DNA of 64,000 nt from a bacterium (GCA_021158245.1 JAGGVB010000058.1:24349-88348), one strand, 5' to 3'; positions 4,477 through 56,224 are shown, counted from the stretch's first letter. The notes: generated from the letters alone by a model not told the origin. Translations and numbers: made by a program.

Positions 4477-6453
4477 TTGATGAGTGAAAAGACACGTTTA
4501 AAATTTGTGGGATTCTTATTTTTTTTCCTGATAGCGGGAGTGCTCGTGCGGACTTTTCATTTTCAGGTTGTTTCACGCGAACCGTGGAGTTCAATGGCTC
4601 CCAGGCAATATCAGGGCAGAGTCAAACTAATGGCCCACAGAGGGATTATCTATGACAGGCATATGAACATTATGGCTATGGATCTTCCCATCTATTCACT
4701 TGCCGTAGATCCGTCTATTATAAAAGATAAACAAAAGGCGGCCTTTTTCCTTTCGAAATCTTTGGGGCTTAACGAGCAGGAGTGCATTGATAAAATGTCT
4801 TCAGATGGAAGTAAGTCCTTTGTTTACATAAAGAAAGATATTTCAGAACAAGAGCAGATAAAATTGAAGAATTCCGGCATGCAGGGGCTGGTTTTTGTCC
4901 GTGAAAGAAAACGTGTGCGGCCTTTTGGAGATCTTGCAATTCAGACTATCGGTATTGTTAACAATAACAGGCAGGGAGTAGGCGGAGTTGAACAGGCTTT
5001 GAACGATTGGCTTGAAGGGCGGGACGGCTGGGCTATACTTCAGAAAGATGCGCGTAATAAAAAATTCACAAGCATTGATTATCCTGCAGAGCAGTCAAAG
5101 GATGGGCATCATGTCGTGCTTACAATTGATCATGCTTTCCAGTCTATTATAGAAGAAGAGATGAAGGCCAGTGTTGAAAAGTACAATGCTAAAAGCGGCA
5201 CAGCGGTTCTTATGGATCCGTTAACCGGTGATATTCTTGCAATATCTTCTGTAGTTGGGAAATACGGCAATGACAAGCCGAAGTTTAATCAGTTTATCAG
5301 AAACAGAGCTATTCAGGACTGTTTTGAGCCGGGGTCCATTTTTAAGGTTATGACTGCATCTGCAGCTTTGCAGACAGGCCAATTTAAAGTAAACACACTT
5401 ATTCATTGTGAAAACGGAGAATATACACTTGCAGGGCATAAGATACACGATCATAATGAGTCCTATGCATGGCTGACTCTTTCGCAGGTACTTGAGAAAT
5501 CATCAAATATCGGAATTGCAAAAGTGGGGCAGAAACTTGGCAGAAAGACACTGTTCAGGTATATCAGAGATTTTGGATTCGGAAACAGAACAGGCGTGGA
5601 TCTTCCCGGCGAAGAGCCCGGAATACTTCATCCAGCTTACGACTGGAATGAATTTGAAGTTGCAACAACCTCCTTCGGACAGGGAATTGCCGGAACAGCT
5701 CTTCAGATTGCAGATGCAGTATCTGCAGTTGCTAACGGAGGCAGACTTTTAAAACCTCTTATCTGGAAAAAAATTCTGGACAGCAGCGGTAAAGAGGTGC
5801 GTACTTCCGAGACAAAGGTGGTCAGGCGTGTTATCTCTGAAGAGACTGCATTTAAAATGAGAAGAATTCTTGAATCTGTTGTAAAGAACGGCAGCGGCCG
5901 TGCAGCTGGAGTGGAAGGAGTCAGAGTTGCAGGTAAAACCGGTACTGCACAGAAATCTTTACCAGGTATGAAAGGTTACGTACAAGGCGCCTATGTGAGC
6001 TCATTTGTAGGATTTTGGCCTGCTGATACACCATTTTTTGTTCTCGTTATTGTTTTTGACGAGCCTAAGGGAAGTTACTGGGGCTCACATACTGCAGCTC
6101 CTGTATTTTCTGCAATAGTATCACGGCTACAGGGAATTGCAGGCCCGGGAAGAATTCCGCGTTTGCCTCAGGAAAAAAATAAGGGCAGAAAGAGGATTGA
6201 TTTTGCATCTTACACAAAAGAGCTTCCTCTGAAGGCTGATAAAATATCACAAAAATCCCGCAAAGCCGTATCAATTCACTACCTGCCTGACCTTACGGGA
6301 TTTACTGTGCGCGATGCTCTCGAAATGCTGATAGACTATAAAATAAAGGTAAAAATAGAGGGTTGTGGTGTTGTATTAAGGCAGATACCAGGGCCGGGCA
6401 ATAAAGTTAAAAAGGGGATGATATGCCGGCTTATTTGCAATACCACTCTGTAA
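4477..6453 (+). CDS. ftsI: Peptidoglycan D,D-transpeptidase FtsI (class B PBP) with C-terminal PASTA domain
   Basis: N-terminal TM, PBP dimerisation domain and a transpeptidase domain (KTGTA motif: AGKTGTAQK). The C-terminal ~60 aa match the PASTA consensus (LPDLTGFTVRDALEMLIDYKIKVKIEG.G.V..Q.P.PG). Confidence 0.85.
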   Translation: MMSEKTRLKFVGFLFFFLIAGVLVRTFHFQVVSREPWSSMAPRQYQGRVKLMAHRGIIYDRHMNIMAMDLPIYSLAVDPSIIKDKQKAAFFLSKSLGLNEQECIDKMSSDGSKSFVYIKKDISEQEQIKLKNSGMQGLVFVRERKRVRPFGDLAIQTIGIVNNNRQGVGGVEQALNDWLEGRDGWAILQKDARNKKFTSIDYPAEQSKDGHHVVLTIDHAFQSIIEEEMKASVEKYNAKSGTAVLMDPLTGDILAISSVVGKYGNDKPKFNQFIRNRAIQDCFEPGSIFKVMTASAALQTGQFKVNTLIHCENGEYTLAGHKIHDHNESYAWLTLSQVLEKSSNIGIAKVGQKLGRKTLFRYIRDFGFGNRTGVDLPGEEPGILHPAYDWNEFEVATTSFGQGIAGTALQIADAVSAVANGGRLLKPLIWKKILDSSGKEVRTSETKVVRRVISEETAFKMRRILESVVKNGSGRAAGVEGVRVAGKTGTAQKSLPGMKGYVQGAYVSSFVGFWPADTPFFVLVIVFDEPKGSYWGSHTAAPVFSAIVSRLQGIAGPGRIPRLPQEKNKGRKRIDFASYTKELPLKADKISQKSRKAVSIHYLPDLTGFTVRDALEMLIDYKIKVKIEGCGVVLRQIPGPGNKVKKGMICRLICNTTL

Positions 6454-21952: not shown

Positions 21953-22017
21953 TTAGTGCTTTGCCTGATATTTTTATTTTAATAAACAAGATGTTTCTTT
22001 TAATCCTGTTTAATTGA

Positions 22018-22122
22018 GTGGAAAGTTATAAAGTGGAAAGTTATAAAGTTGAAAGTTGTAAAGTGAAAAGTTATAAAGTGGAAAGTTATAAAGTGGAAAG
22101 TTATAAAGTATAAAGCTGTAAA
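22018..22122. repeat. Tandem repeat, 7 x 15 bp (consensus GTGGAAAGTTATAAA)
   Basis: Read directly: gtggaaagttataaa x2, gttgaaagttgtaaa, gtgaaaagttataaa, gtggaaagttataaa x2, gtataaagctgtaaa; intergenic, upstream of pepF. Confidence 0.9.
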
Positions 22123-22367
22123 GCCTTCCGTTGATCCTCTGTCTATACAAAATTTTCATTTTGTTGTATAGGCCTTAAAACCACCATTGCTTTTTCTGAA
22201 GAGCTGTTTTTGTTAATAACTTAAAAAAGAATTCTATAAAATATTTTGTTTTTAACCTTGATTATTGTAATATTAAAGTTCTTAAATTGTTTCCCTGTTA
22301 ATAGAGATCAGGGAGACAAAGCAGTAAAATTAAAGGTTTAATAAAGGTTTTAAGGAGTTTTATTAAT

Positions 22368-24206
22368 ATGAAAACAGGGATTGTCAAATCACAGACACGA
22401 TCAAGACAAGAAGTATCTCAAGAATACAAGTGGAATCTGTCTGATATATTTCAATCGGATGAATCATGGCAAAAAGCAAAAGATGAATTTATAAAAAAGA
22501 TGGATGGGGTTGTCAAATACAAGAGCAGGCTTGCTTCTTCATCAAAGATATTGCTTGAGTGCCTTGAATTTAACAGCTCTCTTGAAAAAGAATTTTCAAG
22601 GCTCTATTCCTATTCCTCAATGAAATCTGATGAAGATACGAGAAATTCAAAGTATTTGGGTTTTCGTCAGGAGATGTCACAGATTGGTACTGAATATAGT
22701 GCAAAAGCTGCTTTTATTGAACCGGAGATTGCAGCAGTAGATAAAGAGGTGATAAATAATTTTCTCAGGAATGAGCAGGGCCTTAGAAAATATGAGATGT
22801 ACCTGAATGATATTTTTCGCCGTAAGGCTCATAAATTATCTGAGAAGGAGGAGAGAATCCTGGCCCTTGCCGGTATGATTACGGACGGCTCATATACAAT
22901 ATATTCAATATTTTCAAATGCAGAGATGCCTTATCCTGAAGTGAAACTGCATGACGGAACTATTGTGAAAATTGACCAGGCTGGTTTTAGCAGGTACCGT
23001 GCTTTGGCAAACAGGGAAGATAGAATTATAGTATTTGAGAAATTCTGGGAAAACTATAAAAAATTTAAATCCACCCTTGGTGCAGGCCTGTATACAAATG
23101 TAAAGAAAGATATGTTCTACGCAAAAAGCAGAGGTTATAAATCATCTCTCGAAGCAGCCCTTGATGTAAACAATATTTCGGTTTCAGTATATATATCTCT
23201 TATCAATAATGTCAATAAAAATATCGAAACGCTGTACAGGTATCTTAAAATAAAAAAAAGGCTTCTCAAAGTCGATACACTCCATTACTATGATCTCTAT
23301 GCACCGGCAGTTAAGAGTGTGGATCTTGAATTCAGTTATGACCAGGCTCGTCAGATTGTGATAGATGCACTTAAACCGCTTGGTGAAGAATATTTGTCAG
23401 TTGTAAATCGGGCATTTATTGAGAAATGGATTGATGTTTATCCTACAACCGGAAAACGTTCCGGTGCTTACAGCAATGACGGCGGATATGATGTTCATCC
23501 GTATATGCTTCTAAATTATAATGGAAAGTACAATGATGTAAGCACTTTGATTCATGAAATGGGACATTCCATGCATACTTATTTATCAAACAAAAATCAG
23601 CCTTTCCCTACGGCAGATTATTCTATTTTTGTTGCAGAGGTTGCATCTACTCTTAATGAGGCCCTTCTTATGAATAAGATGCTTTCCGAAATTGAGGATT
23701 CCGATATTAGATTGTCTCTGCTTATGGAGTATCTTGACGGAGTAAAAGGCACTCTCTTCCGTCAGACACAGTTTGCTGAGTTCGAACTGAAGATTCATGA
23801 AAAAGCTGAAAAGGGAGAGCCTCTTACAGGTGATGCACTGACTGAAATTTATATTGATATGCTGAAGAGATACTACGGCCATGATAAGGGCTTTTGTTTT
23901 ATAGATGATATGGCAGGAGTAGAGTGGGCATATATCCCTCATTTTTATTATAATTTTTATGTATATCAGTATGCGACTTCTTTTACTGCTTCCACAGCCC
24001 TTGCACTGAAGGTGATCAACAAAGAAAAGGGTGCAAAGGAAAAAGTAATTAAATTTTTATCAGCCGGGTGTTCTGAATATCCTATTGATGTCTTGAAAGT
24101 TGCAGGCGTTGATATGAACAGTTTGGAACCTTTTGATTTAACCGTTAAATATGTAAATAATGTTATGGATGAAATTGAAAAAATTTTGGCTGAGAGGGGA
24201 GAATAA
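22368..24206 (+). CDS. pepF: Oligoendopeptidase F (M3B family)
   Basis: 612 aa, HEMGH zinc motif (TLIHEMGHSMHTY), full-length PepF-like architecture. Confidence 0.85.
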   Translation: MKTGIVKSQTRSRQEVSQEYKWNLSDIFQSDESWQKAKDEFIKKMDGVVKYKSRLASSSKILLECLEFNSSLEKEFSRLYSYSSMKSDEDTRNSKYLGFRQEMSQIGTEYSAKAAFIEPEIAAVDKEVINNFLRNEQGLRKYEMYLNDIFRRKAHKLSEKEERILALAGMITDGSYTIYSIFSNAEMPYPEVKLHDGTIVKIDQAGFSRYRALANREDRIIVFEKFWENYKKFKSTLGAGLYTNVKKDMFYAKSRGYKSSLEAALDVNNISVSVYISLINNVNKNIETLYRYLKIKKRLLKVDTLHYYDLYAPAVKSVDLEFSYDQARQIVIDALKPLGEEYLSVVNRAFIEKWIDVYPTTGKRSGAYSNDGGYDVHPYMLLNYNGKYNDVSTLIHEMGHSMHTYLSNKNQPFPTADYSIFVAEVASTLNEALLMNKMLSEIEDSDIRLSLLMEYLDGVKGTLFRQTQFAEFELKIHEKAEKGEPLTGDALTEIYIDMLKRYYGHDKGFCFIDDMAGVEWAYIPHFYYNFYVYQYATSFTASTALALKVINKEKGAKEKVIKFLSAGCSEYPIDVLKVAGVDMNSLEPFDLTVKYVNNVMDEIEKILAERGE

Positions 24207-37960: not shown

Positions 37961-38036
37961 ACAAACTTTATGAACTTTACAAACTTTATGAACTTTATAA
38001 CTTTATGAACTTTATAACTTTATGAACTTTATAATT
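37961..38036. repeat. Tandem repeat, about 8 x 9 bp (AACTTTATG/A), 17-bp higher-order unit AACTTTATGAACTTTATA
   Basis: CTTTAT recurs at 37966, 37975, 37984, 37994, 38001, 38010, 38018 and 38027. The core TTTATAACTTT is the reverse complement of AAAGTTATAAA in the 22018-22122 array. Confidence 0.85.
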
Positions 38037-40854: not shown

Positions 40855-41050
40855 GATATTTTTAAAGTCCCGGAATGATTAAATAGCGCTCCACGGACTG
40901 TTCCGTGACAGACCGGCTGTTGTTCACGAACCGGGCCGACAAACAAACTTGCGGATATTTGTCTGTCTCGGCCTGCTTTCCTTTCTTTTCCGGGAAAATT
41001 GCCTCCGCGGGCATCCCCGAAAGGTACTGATAAAACAGGCACCTCTATCT
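40855..41050 (-). promoter_or_regulatory. Lysine riboswitch (L-box, Rfam RF00168-like) aptamer
   Basis: Minus-strand RNA starts ...UAGAUAGAGGUGCC...AGUA and contains GAAAGG...GCCGAG, CUGUCACGGAAC and GUGGAGCGCUAUUU. These parallel the conserved L-box segments of the B. subtilis lysC leader (GAUAGAGGUGCGAAC...GAGUA, GGCUGUCAAGAAA, UGGAGGGCUAUCU). It lies 5' of lysC-lysA, with a -35 TTGCAT / -10 TATTAT promoter at about complement(41065-41093). Confidence 0.65.
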
Positions 41051-41340
41051 AATCGAATTTGAATATAATAAAGAATGAAATGCATTGATGCAAGCATTTT
41101 CTGTAAAAATTAAAATATTTGTTGTGTTTAAAGGGGAAAATCGTATATTTTTAGTGTAGCATCCGATATCAATGTTTATCCCTTACTTCCCGGATTATAC
41201 TGCTAATGATTTTTAATTATCATCTATAACAGCCCTGAGCTGGAATCTGCTTCGGGCTGTTTTTATAAATTATTGCATAATTTTTTGAGATAATTTAACA
41301 CGATTTGTTTGTTAATAAATTTAATTACACTTCGTAAATT

Positions 41341-52336: not shown

Positions 52337-55300
52337 ATGTCAATGCAAGATTTAAGACCAATTGAAGCCGATATTGAAATATTAGTTGTGGAAGACAGTC
52401 CGACTCAGGCAATGCATTTAAAATACATACTTGAGCGGAGAAATTATACGGTACATATGGCAACGAACGGCAAGGATGCCCTTGAAATGATGCGGAAACG
52501 TAAACCGACTATCGTGATAAGTGACATTCTGATGCCTGAAATGGACGGGTACGAATTCTGCCGCCAGATACGTGCCGATGAACAGCTGCAATATGTCCCT
52601 GTAATCTTGTTAACACAACTTTTTGATCCGAGAGATGTGATAAGAGGTCTGCTCAGCGGAGCTGACAATTTTGTTACAAAACCCTACAGTGAACAATTCC
52701 TTGTTTCCAGAATTCAGTACATACTTGCAAATCAGGAACTTAGAAAGAACTCAATTACTGAAATGGGTATAGAAATTATTTTTGCAGGGCAGAAACATTT
52801 TATAACTTCCGACAGAATGCAGATTCTGGATCTTCTGTTTTCAACTTTTGAGAATGCTGTACAGAGAAATCAGGAACTTGAAGAGACTAATAAAGAATTG
52901 AGAAGAGCAATAGAGACAATAGAGACAATCAATGAAGTAACAGGCAAGTTGAACAGGATGCTTATGCCGGAAGATGTTGCACGTGCAATCGGAGACGGTG
53001 TCAAAAAACTCATTGACTATGATGAGTGTATTGTATATTCGATTGATGAAAGTAAAAAATATCTTATCCCGATATTTGCAGGCCAGAGACAGGGAGAGAA
53101 AAACAGCGATAAAGTTAAAAAGTTAAAAATCGGAGAAGGGATTGTGGGCCTTGTCTATTCCCGTGGAAAACCTGAAATGGTGGGGGATATAACAAAGCAC
53201 CCCAAGGCCAGGTATCTGAAGAACAAAAATGTCCCGACATATTCCGTTCTTGCAGTACCTATGCAGTATGAAAACGAGACAATGGGAGTTATAGCACTGC
53301 TTAAAACAGGGCTGCATCAGTTCAGTGAATCCCACATGCGTACTCTTTTAATTCTTGCAGGACAGGCTGGAGTTGCAATGGAGAATGCCCGGCTCCTGCA
53401 GGAAGAGAAGAGGAGGATAAGACAGCTTTCTCTGATTAATGAGATTTCACGAAAAATGGTGTCAACTCTTGACGTGGAAGAACTAAGCGTTTATGTTGTA
53501 GAGTCAATTCAAAATGAATTCAAAGAGGATACAATACTGCTTCTCGTTAAAGATGAAGATGAGAATAAACTGGTAATTGGAGCTCATGCGGGTATTGAAA
53601 GTAAAAAATTCCATGACGGCTGGATTTTGGAAAAAGACTCCTCTGCTGTATGGAAGGCTGCAAAATCCGGTGAAGTTGTTACTGTAAATGATATTAAGAA
53701 AATAAAGGATCTGCAGCCGCTAATTGCAGGTATTCGTTCGGAAATAGCAGCCCCTATTAAGAAAGGGGATAAACTGCTTGGAGTTCTGCACATAATGAGT
53801 AAAAAGAGTGATTCGTTTAATGAAAAGGATTCCGCTTTAATGAAAATGCTTGCGGATCAGATTGCAATGGCACTTGAGAATGCAAGATTATATGAAAGCG
53901 AAAGAAAAACAAGTGAACTTGCACAGCAGGCTAACAGAGCAAAAAGTGAATTTCTTGCCAATATGAGTCATGAGATCAGGACTCCTATGAACAGCATTAT
54001 AGGATTCTCCGATCTGCTGCTTCAGGAGAATCTGCCCGAAGAATTGGTCGATTTCGCAAAGACTATCAAGCTTAACGGTGAAAGCCTTCTGGAAATTATT
54101 AACCAGATTCTTGATCTGGCAAAGGTCGAAACAGGGCGTATGGAAGTGGATGTTGTGGAGTGTAATTTATCCGAACTTGTTGAAAATGTTTCACAGCTGC
54201 TCAGGCCGAGAGTTCTTGACAAAGGGCTTAAGTTTAAAGTTTCGACTGAACCTGAACATCTTCCGTATATTGAAAGCGACAGTCTTAAGATTCGTCAGAT
54301 TATGGTTAATCTCCTCGGCAATTCGGTCAAATTTACTGAAGACGGGGAGATAGGGTTTAGTGTAAATGTACGGAAACAGAAGAATGCCAGAGGTATGCTG
54401 GAAGTACATGTATCAGATACCGGTATTGGAATAGCCCCGAACAAACATCAAGCTATATTTGAATCGTTCACTCAGGCTGATGCGTCAATGACACGCCGGT
54501 TTGGGGGAACAGGCCTTGGCCTATCATTGAGCAAGCAGATGGTTGAACTGTTAGGCGGCAAAATCTGGTTTGAATCTGACCTCGGAAAAGGGACTACATT
54601 CCACTTTAGCGTGCCTGTAAGGATAATTTCGGAAAAAGTCGGAGTTCCTGTTAAAAAAGTGCAGAAGGCACAAATAAAAGCTGTAGGTGCCGGAAAAGGA
54701 AAAACAAAGCAGATAAGTATACAGACAAAAAAGAAGCGTAAAGAGCCGCTTGTGCTTTTAATAGAAGATAACGGCAGTGCAATGGAACTGCTTCAGAGAT
54801 ATCTTAAACGTGACGGCTATGAAGTGCAGTGCAGTACAACAGGTGATGATGGAATTCTTAAGGCAAAATTCTACAGGCCTGATGCTATTATTCTGGAAAT
54901 TTTATTACCTGGAAAGATGGACGGGTGGGAAGTGCTTAGAAATCTTAAATCAAGTACTTTAACCAAAGATATTCCGGTCATAGTATGTTCCGTACTTTCA
55001 AACCAGAAAAAGGCGTACAGCCTTGGTGCAGTGGAGTATATTGAAAAGCCTGCACAGGAGAAGGCCCTTCTTGATACTTTACACAAGTCCATAGGGCTGA
55101 GTGATAAGAAAAATAAGGAAGTCCTTGTTGTAGATGATGACAAATCCGTACACGTGCTTTTCGGCAAACTTCTTAAAAGCATGGGTGTAATTGTGAAGAA
55201 TTTTGAGAATGGGAATGATGTAGTAAAGTATCTTGAAAGCCCGCATCCTATTGCACTTGTAATACTGGATCTTTTAATGCCTGGTGTAGACGGGTTTGAG

Positions 55301-56224
55301 GTTCTTAAAAAGATCAAATCTTCAGAAAAGACAAAAGATATACCAGTTGTTATTTATACAGGTAAAAAACTTACTTCAAGAGACAGATCCCGGCTTAATG
55401 AAAATTATGCACTTCTTTTACAGAAAACAAGTGAAACGCCTGAAACACTGTTAAATCAGCTTAATAATCTTGTTATGCCGTCTCTCAGAGAGGCAATTGA
55501 TAAAGCAATGCAGGAAGAGGAAGAGGCTGTAAGAATTCTTCTTGCAGAGGACGATCCTTCGGGGCAGAAACTAATGCGGCTTCTTTTAAGTCAGTTGGGA
55601 TATGCTGTAGACCTTGCAGGTACAGGCCAGCAGGTTCTTGATATGCTTAAAAAGAAAGATTATGATATTGTGCTTATGGATATGGAAATGCCTGTAATGG
55701 ATGGCTTTACTGCAACGCGCAAGCTTAGAAGTATGGAGAAATACAAGGATATGCCGATAATTGCGCTTACTGCACATGCAATGAAGGAACACAAGAAAAA
55801 GACACTTGAGGCAGGATGTACGGATTATCTGTCAAAACCTATAAATCGCGACAAATTGCAGGATATCCTCAATAAATACCTTGCAGACCCCGGCGTACCG
55901 GAGGAAAAAGAATCAAAAACGGAACAGACAAATTTGATTGCAGATGACCCACTTATGGCTGAACTAAGAGAATTCTTCATTGATGACCTGTCTAAAAAGA
56001 TAAAGAAATTTAATGAGGATATGGAAAAGAAGGATATTGATGAAGTTATAAGATTCGGCCATTCTCTTAAAGGCACAGCAGGATCATACGGATTCCCTGT
56101 TTTTTCCAAACTTGGTGCTCAGATAGAAGATTACGGCCGTGAAGGCAAGTGGGATGAAATAGCATCTCTGCAAATTGCTATTGTAAAAGAGTATAAACTG
56201 CTTGGAGTTAATGATGAAGCCTGA
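52337..56224 (+). CDS. Giant hybrid sensor kinase: REC-coiled coil-GAF-GAF-HisKA-HATPase-REC-REC-REC-HPt
   Basis: REC1 (ILVVEDS...[12 protein letters not shown]); two GAF-like modules; H box [18 protein letters not shown]; G2 box [24 protein letters not shown]. Three further REC domains (LLIEDN...[12 protein letters not shown]; LVVDDD...[11 protein letters not shown]; LLAEDD...[11 protein letters not shown]) and a C-terminal HPt ([14 protein letters not shown]). Confidence 0.85.

Follow-up and report, generated by a model that had tools for sequence, protein, structure and literature searches.

What is a 15-bp tandem array doing in the intergenic DNA upstream of pepF, and is it a functional element or a product of the way in which intergenic DNA changes? 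The question arises from a locus in a 64-kb stretch of bacterial DNA (hereafter the window, in which all coordinates are given unless a contig is named). We consider, with a probability of roughly 55%, that this repeat (array 1) is an intergenic minisatellite (VNTR), young and hypervariable, that was made by slippage and belongs to a recurrent repeat class. The evidence for this answer comes from the structure of the array, from its variation between strains and its absence in relatives, and from a second array in the window and a wider class of similar arrays in other genomes.

A repeat search placed array 1 at 22018-22122 on the plus strand, with seven copies at an exact 15-bp spacing, and TRF called the same array at 22017-22109 (period 15, 6.2 copies, 92% matches, score 165), in agreement with the tandem 15-bp repeat of the initial annotation. 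The earlier description of seven perfect to near-perfect copies was slightly generous: the copies of GTGGAAAGTTATAAA that start at 22018, 22033, 22048, 22063, 22078 and 22093 carry 0, 0, 2, 1, 0 and 0 mismatches, respectively, which gives four perfect and two near-perfect copies, and the seventh is degenerate (Table 1). Two subunits, one of 7 bp and one of 8 bp and both with an AAAGT core, make up each unit, and the 12 cores within 22022-22109 alternate at 8/7-bp spacing, just as had been proposed for the AAAGT half-sites. The view that this is not random low complexity also stands, since the repeat is structured and built on a conserved AAAGT core, which is found again at another locus of the window and in many other genomes. 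The repeat search found no inverted repeat at array 1, and neither of the two window arrays has an inverted partner. A CRISPR array was ruled out, as the units of array 1 are contiguous and have no spacers. Because the period is a multiple of 3, array 1 is open in two frames on each strand; a GTG-initiated frame at 22018-22113 (+) would read (VESYK)n over ~31 codons, and a 49-aa ORF covers the array on the minus strand (22010-22159), both without coding support.

Table 1. Features at and around the two arrays of the window.
Feature	Position	Strand	Remark
ORF6N-domain gene, 124 aa	21578..21952	+	Pfam; directly upstream of array 1
Array 1, in-register units GTGGAAAGTTATAAA	22018..22107	+	six 15-bp units
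Array 1, variant unit 4, GTGAAAAGTTATAAA	22063..22077	+	absent from the 6-unit allele (L001/L149)
Array 1, degenerate seventh unit, GTATAAAGCTGTAAA	22108..22122	+	11/15 match the consensus, 4 mismatches
TTGAAA-17 nt-TATAAA, sigma-70-like	22049..22077	+	by eye; inside units 3-4 of array 1
Weak A+U-rich hairpin, no T-run after it	22141..22173	+	19 nt downstream of array 1
Block upstream of pepF kept in relatives	22236..22290	+	array 1 lies outside it
pepF, M3/oligopeptidase F	22368..24206	+	Pfam (Peptidase_M3 + Peptidase_M3_N); gene downstream of array 1
Array 2, ~8 AAAGT-core subunits (ATAAAGTT / CATAAAGTT / TTGTAAAGTT)	37964..38034	-	TRF; period 17

Array 1 is intergenic and upstream of pepF, as had been described: it begins 66 nt past the stop codon of the ORF6N-domain gene and ends 245 nt before the pepF ATG. 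The gene order that leads up to it (ftsA, ftsZ, a radical-SAM gene and the ORF6N gene) is chromosomal and belongs to the dcw cluster. This position bears on one of the two functions that the initial annotation had suggested, an iteron array, which might belong to a plasmid, a phage or a chromosomal replication origin. Array 1 does resemble plasmid and phage iterons in being a cluster of multiple direct repeats in an A+T-rich intergenic region. Iterons, however, are typically 17-22 bp long and helix-phased, and the replicon that has them carries an initiator gene beside them, along with DnaA boxes and an unwinding element; none of these replicon features is found at array 1. With 10.5 bp per turn of B-DNA, the 15-bp period amounts to a non-integral 1.43 helical turns, so that successive units face nearly opposite sides of the helix. 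Across the nine genes that surround the two arrays, Pfam detected neither a Rep nor an RHH family (the neighbours of array 1 encode radical SAM, ORF6N and Peptidase_M3 proteins); DnaA-like boxes occur at chance frequency, with no cluster and none within 21-23 kb of array 1, and the window has no GC-skew switch. In addition, the dcw context is syntenic in relatives that have no array, and a related array lies at an unrelated locus (array 2). The iteron reading thus fails with respect to period, Rep gene, DnaA boxes, skew and context; as far as sequence allows, we reject it, and the probability left to it is negligible.

An exact-protein look-up provided contigs of the same species from several samples (n = 8), in which the copy-number variation that the initial annotation had proposed as a check is indeed present. 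Four contigs (the window, L147, L148 and L150) have a 7-unit allele of array 1, and L001 (= L149) has a 6-unit allele from which unit 4 has been precisely deleted, cleanly and in register. The flanks of these strains differ by no more than 0.1% across 3 kb upstream (ftsZ, the radical-SAM gene and intergenic DNA), and the one-unit indel is among the very few differences between the near-identical strains. Array 1 is therefore a VNTR, because a whole-unit indel distinguishes strains that otherwise differ by at most 0.1%. The same contigs speak to the possibility that array 1 is an assembly artefact, produced by collapse or expansion of a low-complexity region. Three contigs (L151, L152 and L153) break off inside or at array 1, two end at or inside array 2, and L150 is a fold-back chimera downstream of array 1, as might be expected of such an artefact; against this, five independent assemblies (ENA, JGI and the window, from different samples and pipelines) span array 1 with an identical unit order, and the deletion in the 6-unit allele is clean and in register. 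An artefact is thus extremely unlikely.

Three further features of these contigs concern the region downstream of array 1. An apparent structural variant in L150 was rejected as a fold-back assembly chimera, in which 5120-5617 of the contig is the reverse complement of window 22730-22234, joined after 22345, and an apparently truncated pepF in L147 (about 5500-5600) was caused by a scaffold N-gap. In addition, pepF is a divergence hot spot, with 2.7-3.4% substitutions relative to L148 and L001 against no more than 0.1% in ftsZ, the radical-SAM gene and the intergenic DNA, which suggests recombinational import or diversifying selection.

Searching for the core elsewhere, another check that had been proposed, led to a second locus within the window, array 2. 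Its 17-bp period is the sum of ATAAAGTT and CATAAAGTT, its cores are at mixed 8/9-bp spacing, and it has the 13-mer AAAGTTATAAAGT in common with array 1. It lies between the 3' ends of the convergent ispG and lysA genes, on the sense strand of lysA and 33 nt past the lysA stop, and both arrays are thus on the sense strand of their upstream gene, 66 nt (array 1) and 33 nt (array 2) past its stop codon. The AAAGTTNTAAAGT core (at most one mismatch) occurs nine times in the 64-kb window against an expectation of 0.92, with eight of the nine occurrences in arrays 1 and 2, and these two are the only arrays in the 64 kb with a TRF score above 100; a chance origin is excluded on these grounds. The flanks of the two arrays are no more similar than shuffled sequences, and a larger mobile element carrying both arrays was therefore ruled out. 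Three contigs share an identical array 2, and two more (L142 and L143) stop at or within it; L144 departs from the other contigs exactly at the array 2 start (1343-1366, TTTTTACTATTTACTTTCTAATTT) and then ends, which may reflect an alternative allele or a mis-join at the repeat. The sole other near-match to the array core in the window is a AAAGTTAA repeat (x2.4) at 53111-53129, within a 1295-aa ORF (52337-56224), and it is probably due to chance. The 3' end of the lysC-lysA operon abuts array 2, and a lysine riboswitch (RF00168, 104 bits) lies upstream of this operon at 40876-41055 (-).

Both arrays are specific to this species. Upstream of pepF, no array is present in relatives whose PepF is 82% and 74% identical; these keep the genes that follow pepF, have other genes before it, and share with the window only the upstream block 22236-22290, which, from this conservation, is probably the promoter-proximal region of the gene. 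The ORF6N orthologues of two relatives (82% and 60% identity) have no array downstream, and they lie in a matching ftsA-ftsZ-radical SAM-ORF6N context that continues into M20 peptidase-lysC-dapB-dapA. Array 1 is consequently located exactly on a lineage-specific synteny junction (ORF6N/pepF here versus ORF6N/M20-lysC-dapB-dapA in relatives) and is tied to neither neighbour, because both the ORF6N gene and the pepF gene of relatives occur without it. The ispG/lysA arrangement is kept in relatives, which places array 2 at a conserved junction; the ispG-lysA spacer is 158 bp long and has no array in a relative with 90% IspG identity, and it is only 10 bp long in a 74% relative. Judged from these comparisons, both arrays are recent gains of the species, and array 1 is predicted not to be a conserved part of pepF or ORF6N regulation.

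Several features of the relatives are recorded beside this comparison. The upstream neighbours of pepF differ in each relative (junction 21952/22368; L154, L156). The PepF proteins of relatives (L133, L135) are 16 aa longer, with a hydrophobic, signal-peptide-like N-terminus, and the aligned ATG is mutated in the window (22320-22370), where pepF translation must start at 22368. Although the best named PepF matches are Planctomycetota MAGs (62-65% identity), a Por_Secre_tail (type IX secretion sorting) protein in the relative with 90% IspG identity (L162, 1-1368) suggests that the lineage lies in the FCB group.

The recurrence of the core within the window extends to other genomes. A scan of one genome per species with the pattern AAAGTTATAAAGTN{2,4}AAAGTTATAAAGT returned at least 120 loci; among those listed, and with taxa taken from record titles, 44 are from Patescibacteria, 40 from Bacteroidota, 10 from Gammaproteobacteria, 8 from Ignavibacteria/Kapaibacteria, 3 from Nitrospirota and 1 each from Leptospirales and KSB1, with 13 unclassified. 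Several genomes supply 3-7 loci each among the matches listed. At the listed loci, TRF identifies subunits of 7-9 bp that combine an AAAGT(T) core with linkers that vary, and among the matches listed 183 of 192 arrays are intergenic by crude ORF calls. Outside the seeded match, core spacings of 7, 8 and 9 bp are found 122, 119 and 197 times, and 6/10 bp is almost absent, again among the matches listed. Substitutions relative to each array's own consensus affect 4.2% of core and 12.3% of linker positions (77 arrays, p = 9e-12). Single arrays are unbiased in orientation with respect to flanking genes (37 co-oriented, 42 anti-oriented, 15 convergent and 15 divergent among the matches listed). Inverted pairs consist of an AAAGT block followed by an ACTTT block, and the reverse order is never seen (21:0 among the matches listed); in the same set, ACTTT-like motifs are overrepresented in the 3' flank of single arrays (p = 5e-11). 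Inverted pairs occur in all gene-orientation contexts at background frequency, and the complementarity of the arms within a pair does not exceed that with arms of other genomes, for which reason maintenance of a hairpin in convergent pairs was rejected.

The wider class has no constant partner gene and is not confined to one core. Clustering of 240 array-adjacent ORFs revealed no gene family consistently next to arrays, the largest cluster being PF05635 IVS proteins (five near arrays versus two far). At the listed loci, non-seed arrays with a 7-9-bp period occupy 164 regions in 815 kb, of which 41 are AAAGT-type, and many have unrelated cores. Viral contigs gave five matches to the real pattern versus six to its composition-matched, reversed-sequence control, so that there is no enrichment in them. 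The cross-phylum recurrence may partly be convergence among A+T-rich repeats. A metagenome scan with an exact 30-mer of array 1 found two unrelated contigs only (L145 and L146).

These comparisons bear first on pepF. Array 1 is on the strand of this gene and upstream of it, TATAAA occurs in the units of the array, and units 3-4 together give the TTGAAA-17-TATAAA of Table 1; its copy number varies between strains, and pepF is the most divergent gene between them. Array 1 could on these grounds be a promoter, an UP element or a phase-variation switch whose copy number tunes pepF transcription. We nevertheless regard this as very unlikely, given that the array ends 245 nt before the ATG and upstream of the sole conserved promoter-proximal block, that it is absent in the 82% and 74% PepF relatives, that no promoter is needed at the related array 2, which has the 3' end of a gene on either side, and that the class shows no orientation bias towards downstream genes. 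A consensus scan called no promoter in array 1 either, with TTGAAA-17-TATAAA left uncalled because its last -10 position is A. A conserved regulatory role of array 1 at pepF is thus unlikely. The same holds for a phase-variable contingency locus (SSR switch), as array 1 lies neither in the reading frame nor, judged by the conserved block, beside core promoter elements.

The sense-strand position of both window arrays, 66 and 33 nt past a stop codon, raises a second regulatory reading, in which the arrays act at RNA or transcript ends as the 3' UTR of the upstream gene (ORF6N or lysA). They might provide an unstructured A-rich tract for S1, CSD, Hfq or an RNase E-type protein, or a terminator-like A-rich arm that insulates neighbours. 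Several class-level features among the matches listed would fit: read along the AAAGT strand, the arrays have their 5' end next to a gene boundary (median 11-24 nt), ACTTT-like motifs are overrepresented on the 3' side (p = 5e-11, as above), and a convergent pair would amount to an A-rich arm followed by a U-rich arm, like a bidirectional terminator. An analogous proposal exists for the TAACTGA heptamer repeats (PMC4679880). The reading is quite improbable all the same, as single arrays show no bias with respect to transcription (37 co-oriented versus 42 anti-oriented among the matches listed), pairs occur in divergent intergenic regions at background frequency, and the arms of pairs are not kept complementary. 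Array 1 itself has no partner arm, no predicted terminator-like site in the consensus scan and no significant fold, since neither strand gives RNA that folds better than shuffled sequence (z = -0.5 and -0.9). At the Rfam gathering threshold, the lysine riboswitch is the only match in the window and array 1 has none, and Rfam gave no match for the arrays in nine other loci.

Two related candidates were rejected. Array 1 is not an intrinsic (bidirectional) terminator or a REP palindrome, as it has no inverted repeat, terminator-like site or stable fold, and pairs elsewhere were not accepted as terminators because their contexts follow background gene-orientation frequencies, divergent spacers included. 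AAAGT blocks followed by ACTTT blocks in short intergenic spacers do resemble bidirectional terminators and REP-like palindromes, but these pairs have no GC-rich stem, usually have no U-tract, and have arms that are not kept complementary.

The second function that had been suggested from the outset, a protein-binding array, is better served by the class-level data. A DNA-binding protein that recognises the AAAGT core might coat contiguous 7-9-bp subsites; a nucleoid-associated protein, or an RHH (ribbon-helix-helix) type of protein that oligomerises along tandem subsites, would fit, in which case arrays 1 and 2 would represent two sites of a single regulon or architectural system. Substitutions spare the core relative to the linkers, the spacing is confined to 7-9 bp, and the core occurs at two window loci and, in some genomes, at many loci. 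The two arms of a pair behave like separate arrays and not like a palindrome, and arrangements are direct or convergent and never divergent (21 convergent and 0 divergent among the matches listed), as for the heptads of omega/ParB of pSM19035, which bind direct and inverted heptad repeats in arrays whose function depends on contiguity (PMC9499535). The likeness to these RHH arrays lies in the 7-10 contiguous, non-palindromic units of ~7 bp in direct or convergent order. Their register, however, is fixed at 7 bp, and they overlap the promoters of the cognate operon beside the RHH gene (PMC9499535), whereas the AAAGT cores lie at a variable distance of 7 to 9 bp, in arrays that have no RHH gene beside them and lack conservation.

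Other evidence also weighs against a binding array. No candidate binder is encoded near the window arrays, no gene family is consistently adjacent to arrays, and spacings of 7, 8 and 9 bp are mixed within one and the same array, in contrast to known RHH operators with their fixed registers. Close relatives have neither window array, arrays with unrelated cores are present at the listed loci, and the class is spread over phyla without an obvious shared specific factor. ORF6N was excluded as the cognate binder: tblastn against the array-bearing loci (120 listed) found nothing, and the orthologues of two relatives have no downstream array, so that ORF6N homologues occur without arrays and arrays occur elsewhere without ORF6N. 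Binding by a specific factor is therefore a rather unlikely explanation of the arrays.

Part of the same evidence would also suit a templated or mobile repeat-generating process, in which an enzyme adds AAAGT-type units to 3' ends at breaks or junctions, or a trans-acting element spreads arrays. Such a process would explain convergent-only pairs (21:0) whose arms are independent rather than mirror copies, a conserved core with linkers that vary in length within the 7-9-bp unit, and the sudden appearance of arrays at new intergenic sites. Array 1 lies exactly at a lineage-specific synteny junction, both window arrays are species-specific gains, and some genomes carry the family at many loci. 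We know of no enzyme that adds such repeats, however, and none was found nearby; array 2 is at a conserved junction with no breakpoint, many arrays at the listed loci have unrelated cores, and in viral contigs a composition-matched control unit turns up as often as the real one. Slippage that starts from A/T-rich seeds already in place is the simpler account, and we rate a templated origin as highly improbable.

A broader view would treat AAAGT arrays as the footprint of a conserved, undescribed process or factor in several phyla rather than of passive slippage. One possible form is a protein that builds polymers along AAAGT subsites of 7-9 bp, arranged directly or convergently and never divergently; the other is a templated repeat-adding enzyme that extends the G-containing strand at 3' ends, which could give head-to-head AAAGT/ACTTT arrays and of which array 1, on its rearrangement junction, could be one event. 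Recognition of the core by a factor, or its templated generation, is suggested by regularities that neutral slippage does not predict. Within the window, AAAGTTATAAAGT occurs at two independent loci in 64 kb, both on the sense strand 33-66 nt past a stop; in the class, the core is protected, the spacing is 7-9 bp, the pairs are non-mirrored (21:0), and some genomes have many loci. These observations argue against purely neutral slippage, and the broader view nonetheless appears to us a long shot.

The slippage account of array 1, which we prefer, agrees with the class-level data in that, among the matches listed, the arrays are intergenic, unbiased in orientation, found in background contexts and without a constant neighbour. 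According to this account, 7-9-bp AAAGT-core subunits would have become organised into the 15-bp higher-order unit of array 1, and replication slippage or unequal recombination would have produced the array and changed its length. The non-coding DNA of the species would have gained at least two such arrays independently. Array 1 belongs to a recurrent class of short-period, A+T-rich intergenic tandem repeats in many low-GC bacteria, and any effect that it has would be generic, for example as an unstructured A/T-rich spacer. Its tandem units, its whole-unit differences between strains and its absence at orthologous sites, all of which are properties of a VNTR, are observed, as are the lack of replication features and the kinship with the class; the slippage mechanism and the near-neutrality of array 1 are what we infer.

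Two described kinds of repeat invite comparison. Units of ~7 nt are, according to Mrazek et al. 2007 as reported in PMC4679880, the commonest long simple-sequence repeats (LSSRs) in prokaryotes, and polymerase slippage has been blamed for them. The AAAGT arrays resemble LSSR/VNTR loci, as described there, in their head-to-tail non-coding units, unstable copy number and ~7-9-nt unit; they differ in having a conserved 5-nt core with variable linkers of 2-4 nt, higher-order periods of 15 or 17 bp and a core that recurs across loci and phyla, and no link to contingency genes or phase variation was seen for them. The nearest described analogue is the TAACTGA heptamer family, direct repeats in the intergenic DNA of Beggiatoaceae, Cyanobacteria and Bacteroidetes whose function is unexplained (MacGregor 2015, PMC4679880). 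Both are specific short tandem units at many intergenic sites with a patchy spread across phyla. The TAACTGA repeats, however, are mostly forward and within a few nt of a start codon (PMC4679880), whereas AAAGT arrays have no orientation bias and those of the window lie 245 nt from an ATG or between two stops, and core and unit lengths also differ between the two families. Array 1 is an ordinary VNTR, and the AAAGT repeat class to which it belongs seems little described.

For the window, this result removes over-interpretation, as there is neither a hidden replicon nor a pepF operator, and array 1 is usable as a strain marker (VNTR) in an uncultured FCB-group bacterium. More generally, short-period arrays with the AAAGT core occur between the genes of many low-GC lineages, Patescibacteria and Bacteroidota above all. 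If the class were truly factor-bound or made by a dedicated process, it would represent a new genome-architecture element comparable to REP or TAACTGA repeats.

Individual loci of the class have some additional features. Small genes of PF05635, the 23S rRNA intervening-sequence protein of a four-helix-bundle family, are bracketed by convergent AAAGT/ACTTT pairs in L145 (800-1400), L146 (90-950), L120, L091, L022, L080 and L067; both metagenome matches to the 30-mer have this layout, and seven of the nine PF05635 genes in the loci adjoin arrays. On OW818676.1, a 4.2-Mb chromosome (L006, L022, L035, L056, L086 and L109), AAAGT arrays lie within a longer dispersed composite repeat, in which the AAAGT array is followed by a GGAAGTAGG-type purine-rich array and then by a conserved hairpin, TTCCAACAGCGTTAGCTGTTGAATATTGGTAG, and which is tandemly triplicated in L086. 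Patescibacterial loci (L016, L119, L064, L085, L007 and others) contain arrays with the cores GATTTAA, TAGTTGG, AATTAAA, TAGCTTA and others, often as inverted pairs, and tandem arrays of short period appear to be general in patescibacterial intergenic DNA. In one locus from Falkowbacteria (L083, 5773-6297), convergent pairs directly flank two tRNA genes (5867-5948 and 6127-6200).
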